The notes under the pieces were generated by a model that ran no database searches, had not been told where the DNA came from, and saw only the letters and a list, made by a program, of their open reading frames with translations. Positions 1-6,147 of a stretch of DNA of 6,147 bases are shown in pieces; positions within the stretch are counted from its first letter, which is position 1; the number at the start of each line of letters is the position of its first letter. Origin of the DNA: a virus (Duplodnaviria; Heunggongvirae; Uroviricota; Caudoviricetes); the IMG/VR virus record IMGVR_UViG_2671180637_000023, one strand, 5' to 3'. A program made the position numbers and the translations under genes.

Positions 1-262
1 CAGTCCGGAACAATTTGAAAACCAGAACCTCGCTTAGGCCTGTGTCCATATTACGTGGGTAGGATCAAACCTCATGCTATTTTCGCTTATATGCCTCTAA
101 AGGCATGGCACTTAAATAGATAAAAGCACCACAAAAGCATAAAAAAACCACACAGTAAAACCGCAATATGAAACAATAACAGATAATTAAACCAAAAACA
201 GATAGCGCATTGTGATAATCATTCAATACTAAACAAAATATAAACAGTGGAGCAATATGTAA

Positions 263-329: not shown

Positions 330-1283
330 ATGCGGGCGAAACTTCTGGGAATATTCCTGACAACCCCTATTGCGATCAGCTCTTTTGCTTCTACCGAGAC
401 TTTATCGTTTACTCCTGACAACATAAATGCGGACATTAGTCTTGGAACTCTGAGCGGAAAAACAAAAGAGCGTGTTTATCTAGCCGAAGAAGGAGGCCGA
501 AAAGTCAGTCAACTCGACTGGAAATTCAATAACGCTGCAATTATTAAAGGTGCAATTAATTGGGATTTGATGCCCCAGATATCTATCGGGGCTGCTGGCT
601 GGACAACTCTCGGCAGCCGAGGTGGCAATATGGTCGATCAGGACTGGATGGATTCCAGTAACCCCGGAACCTGGACGGATGAAAGTAGACACCCTGATAC
701 ACAACTCAATTATGCCAACGAATTTGATCTGAATATCAAAGGCTGGCTCCTCAACGAACCCAATTACCGCCTGGGACTCATGGCCGGATATCAGGAAAGC
801 CGTTATAGCTTTACAGCCAGAGGTGGTTCCTATATCTACAGTTCTGAGGAGGGATTCAGAGATGATATCGGCTCCTTCCCGAATGGAGAAAGGGCAATCG
901 GCTACAAACAACGTTTTAAAATGCCCTACATTGGCTTGACTGGAAGTTATCGTTATGAAGATTTTGAACTCGGTGGCACATTTAAATACAGCGGCTGGGT
1001 GGAATCATCTGATAACGATGAACACTATGACCCGGGAAAAAGAATCACTTATCGCAGTAAGGTCAAAGACCAAAATTACTATTCTGTTGCAGTCAATGCA
1101 GGTTATTACGTCACACCTAACGCAAAAGTTTATGTTGAAGGCGCATGGAATCGGGTTACGAATAAAAAAGGTAATACTTCACTTTATGATCACAATAATA
1201 ACACTTCAGACTACAGCAAAAATGGAGCAGGTATAGAAAACTATAACTTCATCACTACTGCTGGTCTTAAGTACACATTTTAA
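330..1283 (+). CDS. ompT: Outer membrane protease OmpT (omptin family, protease VII)
   Basis: 317-aa ORF whose translation I recognise as E. coli OmpT over its whole length. 20-aa signal peptide MRAKLLGIFLTTPIAISSFA, then mature STETLSF. Catalytic residues present at precursor positions D103/D105 (MVDQD) and D230/H232 (NDEH), which are mature D83/D85/D210/H212. Ends in the C-terminal aromatic residue typical of beta-barrel OMPs (...LKYTF). SD GGAG upstream. Confidence 0.97.
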   Translation: MRAKLLGIFLTTPIAISSFASTETLSFTPDNINADISLGTLSGKTKERVYLAEEGGRKVSQLDWKFNNAAIIKGAINWDLMPQISIGAAGWTTLGSRGGNMVDQDWMDSSNPGTWTDESRHPDTQLNYANEFDLNIKGWLLNEPNYRLGLMAGYQESRYSFTARGGSYIYSSEEGFRDDIGSFPNGERAIGYKQRFKMPYIGLTGSYRYEDFELGGTFKYSGWVESSDNDEHYDPGKRITYRSKVKDQNYYSVAVNAGYYVTPNAKVYVEGAWNRVTNKKGNTSLYDHNNNTSDYSKNGAGIENYNFITTAGLKYTF

Positions 1284-1532: not shown

Positions 1533-2282
1533 TCAGTCAATTGTTTTGTTTATTCCATCTGTGACGCCGATTATTTTCTCAAAATAATGAGATGGCGTGA
1601 CACCATAATAATCTTTAAATGCACATATGAAATATGAAGTACTGTTATAGCCACATTTCTGGGCTACGACATTGATAGAATAAGAGTTTGAAGTTATGAG
1701 TTTTTTTGCATACCTCATCCTAGTATCTCTCAATATTTCAGTAAATGACGTTCCTTCATCCCTTAATCTTTTTTTCATTAAACTTTCACTCGTATAAATC
1801 AATTCCGCAATATCTTTTAAATGCCATTGTCGCTCAATATTAAAACTGATTATTCCAGTAATTTTACAGGTGAATGTATTTATATTTGTTAGTATAAAAG
1901 AATTTACACTTTCGCGTTTTTTGAACATGGCAAGTAAGGATATACATAGTCTTTCTTTTAACCAAAGGGAGTATGAGTCTGCTATTTTAATCCCTTCAAA
2001 CAGAGAAAAAACAAGCGATAATGGAGGTTCCTCTTCAGCAATATAGCCATTCTTATCAAGAGTAAATTTGCCAGGCAGCTCATTATTCACGTCGATAAAA
2101 AAGGATAAACATGTTTTCTTATCTATATCAACAATTCTTAGTTTAGAGGGGCATACTGGTAACTCCCTTCTAATTTTGTCGCTTACAATAAACAATGAAT
2201 TTTTTTTGAACGAGATAACTCTCCTGTTTATAATTAAATCAAATGATTGACAGATGAAAACTACGGAGCAAACATAATCCAT
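1533..2282 (-). CDS. appY: AraC/XylS-family transcriptional activator AppY
   Basis: 249-aa ORF. N-terminus [21 protein letters not shown] and overall sequence recognised as E. coli AppY. C-terminal dual helix-turn-helix of the AraC family (...[46 protein letters not shown]). SD AGGTG 4 nt before the ATG. Coding sequence conspicuously AT-rich (by eye roughly 30% GC), consistent with horizontal origin. Confidence 0.95.
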
Positions 2283-2828: not shown

Positions 2829-3089
2829 TTATGGTTGAATAAGCCACTCGATATCTGGTGCTACGGAAGTGTCCACACGGTTTAGCAGCACCCGATACTT
2901 TTTTCAGGCTTCCAGCAACGATCTTTCTTCCTCCGTTGCGATTTCCAGATCTACAGCATCCTGCAGTGGCGCAATATACTCACTGAATTCCTGGATGTAG
3001 AACTGTGTGGTGACGGTCTTCCAGCTATTCGGCTCCTGCTGTATTGAAGCATACCAGGCTATTTCAATATCGCTATGCTGCGGCAGCAT
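2829..3089 (-). pseudogene. tfaX: Tail fibre assembly protein remnant (tfaX-like), interrupted by an in-frame TGA
   Basis: ORF 3089..2904 (61 aa) ends ...[23 protein letters not shown] then TGA. The same frame continues [24 protein letters not shown] to a TAA at 2829-2831. The intact tfa in this window reads ...[44 protein letters not shown] at the homologous position, so the TGA replaces a Trp codon (TGG to TGA). The N-terminal 38 aa do not match lambda-type Tfa, so the fragment is chimeric or truncated. Confidence 0.8.
2843..2983. repeat. Direct repeat copy A (tfa 3'-end homology, within tfaX remnant)
   Basis: By-eye alignment with 3892-4032 gives roughly 85% identity over ~140 bp, including a 40-bp identical core (2924-2963: TTTCTTCCTCCGTTGCGATTTCCAGATCTACAGCATCCTG). 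Confidence 0.85.
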
Positions 3090-3145: not shown

Positions 3146-3814
3146 ATGGTGAAATTAATGAAAAAAAACACAGATGATGGGGCTAAAATTTACACACCAC
3201 TTACCCTAAAGCTTTATGACTGGTGGGTTTTGGGAGTATCAAATCGGCTTGCATGGGGATGTCCTACAAAGGAACACCTTCTTCCACACTTTCTGGAACA
3301 TTTAGGTAACAACCATCTGGATATTGGTGTTGGAACTGGGTTTTACCTTACTCACGTACCTGAGAGTAGTCTGATATCTTTAATGGATTTGAACGAAGCT
3401 AGCCTGAACGCGGCATCTACAAGGGCTGGGGAATCAAAAATTAAACATAAAATTAGCCATGATGTTTTTGAACCTTATCCCGCGGCGTTACATGGTCAAT
3501 TTGATTCCATTTCCATGTTTTACCTTCTTCACTGCCTGCCTGGAAATATATCTACAAAAAGCTGTGTAATACGCAATGCGGCGCAGGCCTTAACTGACGA
3601 TGGAACTCTATACGGAGCCACAATTCTTGGCGATGGAGTTGTGCACAATAGCTTCGGTCAAAAACTGATGCGCATTTACAATCAGAAAGGCATCTTTTCA
3701 AACACAAAAGATTCCGAAGAAGGCTTAACACATATACTCTCAGAGCATTTCGAGAATGTTAAAACCAAGGTTCAAGGTACTGTAGTAATGTTTTCCGCTT
3801 CAGGGAAAAAATAG
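3146..3814 (+). CDS. ybcY: Class I SAM-dependent methyltransferase, substrate unknown (ybcY-like prophage cargo gene)
   Basis: 222-aa ORF. Glycine-rich SAM-binding motif I LDIGVGTGF, an acidic residue at the end of the next strand (ISLMDLNE), and a downstream hydrophobic motif (DSISMFYLLHCLP), typical of the Rossmann-fold small-molecule/RNA/protein methyltransferase class. No DNA-methyltransferase target-recognition or DPPY/NPPY-type motif seen. No SD before the ATG at 3146; the ATG at 3158 is preceded by GGTGA, so the true start may be 3158. Gene symbol inferred from position between tfa and tfaX next to appY, as in K-12 DLP12 from memory. Confidence 0.75.
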   Translation: MVKLMKKNTDDGAKIYTPLTLKLYDWWVLGVSNRLAWGCPTKEHLLPHFLEHLGNNHLDIGVGTGFYLTHVPESSLISLMDLNEASLNAASTRAGESKIKHKISHDVFEPYPAALHGQFDSISMFYLLHCLPGNISTKSCVIRNAAQALTDDGTLYGATILGDGVVHNSFGQKLMRIYNQKGIFSNTKDSEEGLTHILSEHFENVKTKVQGTVVMFSASGKK

Positions 3815-3868: not shown

Positions 3869-4453
3869 TTACTCCCTGACAGGGTTCGTAGGCCACTCAA
3901 TATCAGGTGCAGTTGATGTATCAACACGGTTCAGCAACACCCGATATTTTTTCCAGGCTTCCAGCAATGAGGTTTCTTCCTCCGTTGCGATTTCCAGATC
4001 TACAGCATCCTGAAGCGGCGCTATATGCTCACTGGCTACCTGCATCAGGCTGTTTTTTGTTTCTTCCGCCTCCCGGATCCGGAACAGTTTTTCTGCTTCC
4101 GTATCCTTCACCCAGTCTGTGCCGTTCCACTTCTGAAACTCCCCTTCCGGGGATAACCAGGTAACATTTTCCGGTAATGAGCCGAGTTCAGAAATAAATA
4201 ACGCGTCCCCTGATGCCACGTCATAAACTGTTTTACCCCGATGGTCTTCAACAAGATGCCACGATGCCTCATCACTGTTGAAAACAGCCACGAAGCCTGC
4301 CGGAATATCTGGCGGTGCAATATCGGTACTGTTTGCTGGCAGACCTGTATGAGGCGGAATATATGCGTCACCTTCACCAATAAATTCATTAGTTCCGGCC
4401 AACAGATTATAAATTTTTATGGTCTGTGGTTGTTCACTCATTCTGAATGCCAT
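3869..4453 (-). CDS. tfa: Phage tail fibre assembly protein (lambda Tfa family chaperone)
   Basis: 194-aa [77 protein letters not shown]..., recognised as the lambda/Rac/e14 Tfa family. SD GAGG 8 nt upstream. Its start codon overlaps the stf stop (TAATG at 4451-4455). Confidence 0.93.
3892..4032. repeat. Direct repeat copy B (3' end of intact tfa)
   Basis: Partner of 2843-2983; 40-bp identical core at 3973-4012. Confidence 0.85.
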
Positions 4454-5688
4454 TATGCAAGCCTCACAATATAGTTAAATGCGATGTTTTTGACGGTGTT
4501 TTCCGCGTTACCAGCAGCGTTAACGGTGATGGTGTGTCCATGTGAACCAATCGCAACGGAGTGCGTATGAGCACCAATACCGACAGTATGTGCATGTGCG
4601 CCTGCGCTTGCAGCAGTGCCGGACAGCGAGTGGGTATGAGCACCATCTGATGATGTCTTCCCTGCATTACGAGTCTGGCCACTACCGCTTGTTGTGCTCA
4701 TAATCCCCGCGCTTAGATTTGAAATCGCGGTATAACCATTAGGGAAAATGCTCGTGTTCGTGCCACCAAATGCACCGGAACTCTTGTGTTGGTGCGCACC
4801 GGCACTATTTGCAGTCCCGCTAATACTATGGGTATGCGCCCCGGTGTTATTCGTGGATTTGGTTCCGTAATCAAACGACGATGTGTTTTTCGTCCCCAAA
4901 TCCGTACTGGATGCGCTGGCGCTGTGGGTGTGCGATTTAATGCCGTCCTGTTCCTGAGACAATACGGCACGACCACTGGCGGGTTTGCCCTTAATCGTCC
5001 AGCCACGCATATCAGGGATCACGCCTGACGGATAAGCGACTGCAAGTTTCGGGTATGCAGATTTGTCAAAAGTCTGCCCCTGCATCAGGGCATAGCCAGA
5101 CGGAACGGTATCTGATGGCCACGGGATTGGTGCGCCAGGCGGATAAAACTGCTCTGATGGCGTATAGAGTGAATAAACTGTACCGTCCGTTAACCCTTCC
5201 GGCTTATTAGCTGAATATGCTGGTGACGTATGAATCGTCACGCTGGCATTACTGGTATAATCCCATTGAATATTTACACCAGTCGCATAATTTCCGATTG
5301 CAACGTAAATATCGTAAGTATCACCAGATGTATTGACCCAGGCAAAATTTGTAAACCCTGTCGATGTGCGCTGCCATAAAGCACCAGTAATCCCCTTCGG
5401 ATTACCATTACCTGCACGCAAAACAAGTTCAGATATACCTGCCTGTTGAGGTGACCCCACGTTAAATCCCGCGCCACCAATCAACGTAATTGAAACAACA
5501 GAACTCGCCTGTGGCATGGTTACCGTTGCTAATTTGAACCAACCAGCACCACCGCTGAATAACATTGTTGTTGAGTTAAGCGTACCAATATCTTTCGGCG
5601 TCAGTGTTATATCCGCTGAAAGCGCCTTACCATTCACCTTACGGGCAGAAGGTACCCGACCATTCGCATTATCATTAGCTGCTTTCAC
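4453..5688 (-). CDS. stf: Side tail fibre protein Stf, C-terminal portion only (5'-truncated gene; receptor-binding distal region with HxH repeats)
   Basis: 411-aa ORF from a GTG at 5686-5688; the frame stays open upstream to 5760, immediately after the lom remnant stop, with no convincing SD, so this is an N-terminally deleted fragment of a ~1000-aa class gene. The C-terminus ...[40 protein letters not shown] and the collar-like motif [20 protein letters not shown] are characteristic of lambda/Rac Stf-type fibres. Six HxH motifs lie between residues 252 and 385. Stop overlaps the tfa start. Confidence 0.88.
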
Positions 5689-5756
5689 TGCTTTCGGTGT
5701 CGCGGCAAGCGTTTCAGATGCGCTGTTGGTTGCACTACTGAGCTGGACAATTCCTT

Positions 5757-6086
5757 TTATTCATTCACGCGCACAGACGGCCCCGCCATCACGCTGAACC
5801 AGCGGTTACGCACGGAATCTTCATGCCAGCGGGTATCGCTGTAACGGGTAAGCTGGCGATTCTTGTCTCCTGCATAGCTGAATGACGTCACCAGCCCCAG
5901 TGTGTCCGTAAACTCATAACGGTATTTCACGTTAATCCCGTTCAGATCATCACTGCCGGGAACGTTCGTCCGGGCATGAAGATACCCCGCGCTCAGCGTG
6001 GACTGATGTTCAGACGCCCATGCAGGCGCACCGGATACGGCCAGACAAATGGCTGCGGACAAAATGGCGGCACAAACTTTACGCAT
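5757..6086 (-). pseudogene. lom: lom remnant: N-terminal 109 codons of an Ail/Lom-family outer membrane protein, truncated
   Basis: MRKVCAAILSAAICLAVSGAPAWA signal peptide, then [85 protein letters not shown], recognised as the lambda Lom N-terminus (full length about 200 aa). The frame ends at TAA 5757-5759 where full-length Lom continues, so an intact 8-stranded barrel cannot form. SD GAGAGG 6092-6097. Confidence 0.88.
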
Positions 6087-6108
6087 AATTACCTCTCGCT
6101 TTTCTGCA

Positions 6109-6134
6109 ATAAAAAAGGCGCCATTTCTGGCGCC
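6109..6134 (-). terminator. Rho-independent terminator upstream of lom (on - strand), terminating transcription coming from the tail gene side
   Basis: On the - strand: GGCGCC-AGAAAT-GGCGCC hairpin (6134..6117) immediately followed by TTTTTTATT (6116..6108). The lom SD and ATG follow about 20 nt later. Confidence 0.6.
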
Positions 6135-6147
6135 CGTATATGGGTTA

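Follow-up and report, generated by a model that had tools for sequence, protein, structure and literature searches.

The window, by which we mean the whole 6,147-nt stretch of DNA that was analysed, corresponds to a complete draft contig (CYEI01000057.1, assembly GCA_001285545.2) read as its reverse complement and constitutes the right-hand end of a lambdoid prophage at the locus that is called DLP12 in K-12. Positions are those of the window unless they carry the prefix wr, which denotes the reverse-complemented window (wr position p is window position 6148 - p). Anti-Shine-Dalgarno (anti-SD) values are the predicted pairing of the 22 nt upstream of a start codon with the 16S 3' end. The following features were recognized:

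330-1283, plus strand: ompT (gene list)
1533-2282, minus strand: appY (gene list)
2904-3089, minus strand: tfaX remnant (gene list)
3146-3814, plus strand: class I SAM methyltransferase, homologue of ybcY (gene list)
3869-4453, minus strand: tfa, tail fibre assembly (chaperone) gene, 194 aa, intact (ORF list; Pfam PF02413, E = 3.7e-45; anti-SD -5.6 kcal/mol)
4453-5760, minus strand: 'stf, 3' remnant of the side tail fibre gene (translation, blastn against locus L003, Pfam)
4453-5688, minus strand: tail-fibre ORF of 411 aa, read from a GTG (ORF list)
5647-5757, minus strand: single retained copy of the phage tail fibre repeat (Pfam PF03406)
5757-6086, minus strand: lom', truncated Ail/Lom outer-membrane beta-barrel gene, 109 codons plus TAA (ORF list; Pfam PF06316)
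5758-5759, minus strand: deletion junction (blastn blocks and base-by-base view against L003)
6116-6135, minus strand: terminator-like G+C-rich hairpin followed by a T run (consensus scan: 8-pair stem with 6 G-C pairs, then TTTTTATT)

An earlier note on this DNA had described a Lom-like reading frame that stops at codon 109 and abuts a stf frame open from position 5760, and both descriptions proved accurate. The minus-strand ORF at 6086-5757 encodes 109 aa ending in SVRVNE and terminates with a TAA at 5759-5757, and the stf frame runs from an ATA at 5760 to a stop at 4455-4453, which is overlapped by the ATG of tfa (TAATG); a TGA in the stf frame at 5763-5761 directly precedes this open stretch. 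The join itself lies between window positions 5759 and 5758 and reads GAAT|AAAAGG on the minus strand (at greater length GTGAATGAAT|AAAAGGAATTGTCC, with GAATAAAAGG as the spanning sequence). Window 5759 (T) corresponds to lom nt 328, with which the codon for Trp-110 begins, and window 5758 (A) to stf nt 1659, the third position of codon 553. Only 6086-5759 (328 nt) of the lom' ORF derives from lom, and its TAA was made by the join from one lom base and two stf bases. The two genes are joined out of frame, with the stf frame at +1 relative to that of lom.

When the whole window was compared by megablast with 5,426 complete E. coli genomes, some complete chromosomes were found to cover 99% of it in two pieces, with approximately 2 kb of extra sequence between them. 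The best comparator was locus L003 of E. coli M25631H (NZ_CP123059.1), which carries the same locus intact, with the gene order gpJ, lom (199 aa, annotated as an Ail/Lom protein), stf (987 aa, annotated as a prophage tail fiber N-terminal domain-containing protein), tfa, methyltransferase, tfa remnant, appY, ompT and envY. In blastn alignments, wr1-389 matched L003 3001-3389 at 96.9% identity and wr390-6087 matched L003 5384-11077 at 99.16% identity. The missing block, L003 3390-5383, amounts to 1994 bp and is composed of lom nt 329-600 (272 nt), the 64-nt spacer between lom and stf, and stf nt 1-1658. The window is therefore collinear with an intact relative, is matched by it on both flanks and lacks one contiguous block, which are the attributes of a deletion scar. 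The earlier proposal that a deletion had removed the 3' half of lom and the 5' part of stf was borne out by this alignment to an intact lambdoid prophage, from which exactly 1994 bp are missing. The arrangement that had been named as speaking against it, a native lom of 109 codons followed by a naturally short stf, was not found among the intact relatives examined (L002, L003, L017 and lambda), every one of which carries full-length genes.

The bases flanking the two breakpoints were then compared with their intact counterparts in L003, where the parental lom reads GTGAATGAAT|GGTTCAGC and the parental stf reads GCACA|AAAAGGAATTG. The earlier note had suggested looking for microhomology at the junction; the base-by-base view against L003 revealed none, with 0 shared bases on either side of the join and no filler bases. 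The lom motif GAATGG is common to three E. coli prophages (L002, L003 and L017), lambda lom being too diverged and without GTGAATGAAT, and AA[AG]GG is present on the retained side of the stf breakpoint in all four intact relatives (L002, L003, L017 and lambda). A natural stf allele with a T before AAAAGGAATTG, which would give microhomology, was found in 0 of 185,579 species-representative genomes. L003, the closest intact relative, is not the direct parent, as the 3' end of its J differs and the 5' half of its lom is only 96.9% identical; the bases of the relatives point to a join that would have formed with zero microhomology.

Taken with the alignment, the junction is very probably a scar left when one illegitimate (homology-independent) deletion removed approximately 2 kb from a lambda-like prophage that an E. 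coli lineage carries at the DLP12/ompT locus. Such a deletion would have begun within lom codon 110, reached as far as the last base of codon 553 in stf and left a flush join, and it would also have taken the ribosome-binding site and start codon of stf, which are situated in the 64-nt spacer and the stf 5' end. Its enzymology may have been that of end-joining, or of a topoisomerase- or replication-slippage-type error. Deletion between quasi-sites of a serine invertase (Pin/Cin type) was considered and rejected, as this reaction needs a shared 2-bp core and the left (GAAT|GG) and right (CACA|AAAAGG) sites share none.

The window coincides with an entire draft contig whose ends are the terminus of an IS3-family element and the J-lom spacer, most E. 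coli genomes have more than one copy of lom and stf (median 2 places per genome), and not one of 5,426 complete E. coli genomes shows the join; all three facts would suit an assembly artefact, namely a chimeric short-read contig or scaffold that skips the repeated lom and stf sequences of a genome that is in reality intact. This explanation is nonetheless highly improbable. For a de Bruijn mis-join a common (k-1)-mer would be needed, yet lom and stf have no bases in common at the join. The same join was moreover recovered from three other sequences: the contig of a second isolate, one metagenome contig, and one contig assembled from raw reads. The second isolate contig, L009 (CYBQ01000073.1; L016 in IMG/VR), differs from the window at 4 positions in 6147 nt. 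The metagenome contig, L012, is a 7,607-nt MEGAHIT k141 contig (ERZ27269966) that has an identical junction; it begins in J, of which it holds the C-terminal 460 codons, and continues over lom', the join, stf', tfa and the methyltransferase to appY. The third, L014, is a Logan k=31 contig from run ERR178191 that matches wr360-2165 at 100% identity; its first 30 nt lie in lom', and it continues across the join. Since these three sequences come from different software and data, the join is real; the junction is present in the DNA of the organism and not in one assembly alone.

Nor does the preferred single deletion have to give way to a more complicated history, although there are observations that would suit one. 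The lom' side of the join (the 5' half of lom) is only 96.9% identical to L003 as against 99.2% for the stf side, lom 5' alleles have been exchanged around an unchanged scar in the mosaic contig L012, and a contraction of the stf repeats (3 x 132 nt) could have been an event of its own. These would be compatible with two successive deletions, or with illegitimate recombination between the lom and stf genes of different resident prophages followed by gene conversion. We nevertheless consider formation of the join in more than one step to be unlikely. The three repeat copies of L003, of 132 nt each, start at 5124, 5256 and 5388, and the third is the one retained in the window; the deletion ends 4 nt before the GGAATTGTCCAG core of this third repeat, and it is this third repeat, as opposed to the first or second, that the stf sequence on the right-hand side of the join matches. 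Since the genes and flanking sequences of the window line up, in the same order, with those of an intact prophage at this chromosomal site, a single deletion explains the join with the fewest assumptions, and one event rather than two successive deletions is inferred.

The exchange seen in L012 is sharply bounded. This contig is identical to the window over wr286-wr4695, and all of its 46 mismatches fall within wr71-285; the mismatch tract (L012 1460-1674, window 5863-6077) comprises the 5' 215 nt of lom' and changes 18 residues of Lom'. The confinement of the mismatches to the 5' part of lom' indicates that the lom 5' allele was swapped by homologous recombination in one of the two lineages, with the scar left unchanged.

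Six further draft contigs (L004-L008 and L011) end exactly at lom nt 328 and were rejected both as signs of an assembly fork at the join and as a wider spread of the scar. They had been retrieved with an exact-sequence look-up of the 109-aa product, which returns only those exact 109 residues. The contigs originate from different projects and represent a Qin-site prophage in which lom and stf are intact in complete genomes (L017), and they differ from the window in the 3' end of J and the adjoining spacer, as well as at five synonymous sites of lom. Partial Loms of 73-155 aa are common at contig ends, where they terminate at many positions, and the end shared by these six contigs probably reflects the point at which lom paralogues part in the k-mer graph (last paralogue-specific SNP plus k-1).

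The deletion took the 3' 45% of lom. Pfam profile PF06316 (Ail_Lom) matches residues 1-109 of Lom' at E = 2.4e-65 (220 bits, cutoff 23), such that Lom' clearly belongs to the family but, covering positions 1-109 of a profile of 199, is not a full-length barrel; the intact Lom of L003 covers positions 1-199 and its C-terminal strand ends in GVGYKF. Lom' probably comprises the signal peptide and approximately half of the 8-stranded barrel, without the C-terminal strands. In outer-membrane protein assembly, membrane insertion fails when a barrel lacks its C-terminal strands. Lom' would accordingly be unable to form a barrel, and lom' is a gene fragment whose function would have been lost.

Upstream of lom, the strong terminator-like hairpin at 6116-6135 is located between the end of J, which is outside the window, and the lom ribosome-binding site. 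The same hairpin was observed upstream of lom in L003, L004 and L012, with compensating changes in its stem, and it suggests that lom may be transcriptionally separate from the tail operon.

The loss from stf was larger, with 56% of the gene deleted from its 5' end, and the remnant corresponds to residues 554-987 of an intact 987-aa Stf. The intact protein of L003 is laid out as an N-terminal phage_tail_N domain (PF08400, residues 1-134), a region rich in Ala, Ser and Thr, three PF03406 repeats, a collar and a distal region. In the remnant, Pfam searches recovered the domains Phage_fiber_2, Collar and Phage_fiber (PF03406 at residues 2-38, PF07484 at 209-256, and PF03335) and no phage_tail_N domain. 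What has been kept is thus the distal part of Stf, namely a fibre repeat, the collar and the C-terminal receptor-binding region, followed by tfa (PF02413). The earlier note had described the lost portion of stf as a collagen-like shaft, a description that is inaccurate because residues 135-552 of L003 Stf are rich in Ala (34%), Ser (20%) and Thr (13%) and contain no G-X-Y run of at least 3 triplets; the lost portion actually consists of the N-terminal tail-attachment domain, the Ala/Ser/Thr-rich region and two of the three fibre repeats. When the Ur-lambda tail tip was solved by cryo-EM, the part of the fibre that was resolved comprised residues 1-94 of Stf, of which twelve copies assemble there; the N-terminal domain anchors the fibre to the tail tip (PMC12617516). 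A protein started at the GTG at 5688 would be without this N-terminal domain. Deprived of its start codon, its Shine-Dalgarno sequence (SD) and its anchoring domain, Stf' would be the product of a pseudogene, and tfa, though kept intact, would have been deprived of its translational coupling partner. The consequence of the deletion would be a loss of function of both lom and stf, with stf' as a pseudogene.

The earlier note also held that the stf frame has no proper start before a weak GTG, which we can confirm. The first in-frame ATG, GTG or TTG is the GTG at 5688, for which the anti-SD pairing is -0.1 kcal/mol, as against -7.1 kcal/mol for lom, the -5.6 kcal/mol listed above for tfa and -9.3 kcal/mol for the intact stf start; the remnant therefore has no stf start of its own with a ribosome-binding site. 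A consensus scan of the minus strand over 4300-6147 gave no sigma-70-like promoter. With neither an SD nor a promoter, expression of the remnant would be unlikely. A product look-up returned no record of the 434-aa product that starts at the junction. The only route by which stf' could be expressed is transcription from upstream of lom followed by re-initiation 69 nt past the lom' stop. In lambda, lom is expressed in lysogens. The lom SD is good, the GTG is in frame, and the stf' frame and tfa are uninterrupted (about 435 and 194 codons, respectively), so that one may imagine a functional remnant in which Stf' and Tfa are made in the lysogen via lom read-through and re-initiation, for instance as a receptor-blocking anti-phage protein. 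There is a precedent in StfE2, the chimeric Stf of the cryptic prophage e14, which was reported to block T2 adsorption (PMC12529663). We regard a functional remnant as very doubtful indeed, given the poor GTG, the lack of a promoter-like site and the rarity of the scar allele. After the join, moreover, the remnant differs from L003 by one synonymous and two non-synonymous changes, which give no sign of purifying selection, three substitutions being too few sites to test and affording no power for dN/dS. By analogy with StfE2, low-level re-initiation at the GTG might conceivably yield a free fibre tip in the lysogen that masks a surface receptor and excludes other phages, but the chance of this is slight in the extreme. 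The idea starts from the arrangement that the join has made, in which lom is immediately followed by the half of Stf that binds the receptor and by the chaperone Tfa.

The junction is most probably an ordinary pseudogene scar of prophage erosion. The earlier note had read it as a datable scar of prophage decay, and as a deletion scar it stands. Laboratory lambda has no side fibres, owing to a frameshift in stf (orf-401/orf-314), and is viable (PMC12617516); because lom and stf are accessory in this way, the scar alone is no proof of a defective or dead prophage, and it most likely represents the loss of two accessory functions.

Among the closest known systems is phage lambda (18965-22557), in which lom, stf and tfa follow J in the same order as in the lineage of the window. 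The distal part of stf and tfa of the window align with lambda at 82-92% nucleotide identity, and the right breakpoint corresponds to approximately lambda 20729 in orf-401, just before the single KGIVQLSS repeat of lambda. In both the window lineage and laboratory lambda stf is inactivated whilst J remains, although the lesion is a 1-nt frameshift of stf in laboratory lambda (PMC12617516) and a 1994-bp deletion hitting both stf and lom in the window. The lom allele of the window is also far from that of lambda, only 59 nt being aligned by blastn, and lambda has one fibre repeat where L003 has three.

DLP12 of K-12 (nohD-aaaD'-'tfaD-ybcY'-tfaX-appY-ompT) occupies the same locus as the window with the same right-hand genes, matches wr1841-6087 at 99.0% identity and is likewise a lambdoid prophage eroded by deletion. 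Its deletion is, however, independent and larger, in that aaaD' (a terminase remnant) is joined to tfa at approximately codon 49 and lom and stf are gone, whereas in the window lom', 434 codons of stf and the whole of tfa survive, with J still present upstream in related contigs. A further state at the ompT locus is represented by L020, L023 and L024, which share 99.4-99.8% identity with the window on the downstream side of wr494 and in which nohD (Nu1, the terminase small subunit) is joined to stf at wr494. In L023 (795-2501) this nohD-stf join, 104 nt downstream of the junction of the window, is in frame and gives a 568-aa ORF with Nu1 and collar/fibre domains; there is no gene call across the join in L020, and L024 is cut at the contig start. 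An independent lom'-'stf join was found at the Qin site in L001 (6062-7703; NZ_CP062895.1 and five sister pig isolates), where lom nt ~170 is connected to a point before stf repeat 2 with 2 nt of microhomology (TA), a join that also makes a TAA. Truncated or interrupted stf or lom genes are present in the K-12 prophages e14, Rac and Qin as well. The differing lom and stf deletion alleles indicate that homology-independent erosion of these genes is recurrent, lom and stf being frequent targets of this type of deletion.

In public assemblies, rearranged and truncated versions of the stf allele of the window were also observed (P0017, P0025 and P0030, in the cluster of the 411-aa ORF); stf variants include an internal deletion joining TTKKGI to TMPQASS and the alternative N-termini MTRPTIPSARK and MMPPCPRLKAAYD.

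The scar adds one state to an erosion series of the DLP12/ompT prophage, which now comprises the intact form, lom'-'stf, nohD-'stf and the aaaD'-'tfaD form of K-12. In annotations, the 109-aa 'Lom' and the 411-aa 'phage protein' should both be regarded as fragments. The current understanding of prophage decay is unchallenged, and the value of the finding is mainly one of bookkeeping. The exact junction was present in 0 GTDB species representatives and 0 JGI metagenome contigs, and in IMG/VR only in the contig of the second isolate; a literature search yielded nothing specific on the lom'-'stf scar of the window. The exact Tfa allele of the window is similarly recorded on only 7 contigs. Having base-exact endpoints, this lineage-specific deletion could serve as a clonal marker.

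Several minor features of the window lie outside the junction. The ybcY-like methyltransferase gene (3146-3814, plus strand) is an intact ORF of 222 codons, its counterpart being annotated as a pseudogene in K-12 and frameshifted in L003. A 143-nt segment of the tfa 3' end occurs twice in direct orientation at ~86% identity (window 2843-2985 and 3892-4034), one copy inside tfa and the other inside the tfaX remnant, with the oppositely oriented methyltransferase gene between them. At the contig end, an IS3-family terminus occupies window 1-67, and 93 nt across the end of the second isolate contig that corresponds to the IS end of the window are a 100% match to loci annotated as 'IS3 family transposase' (median 3 places per genome). 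Similarity of the window to K-12 and L003 ends at window 61, ~268 nt upstream of the ompT start, and this break, together with the IS3-family terminus, indicates an IS insertion between ompT and envY in the lineage of the window.
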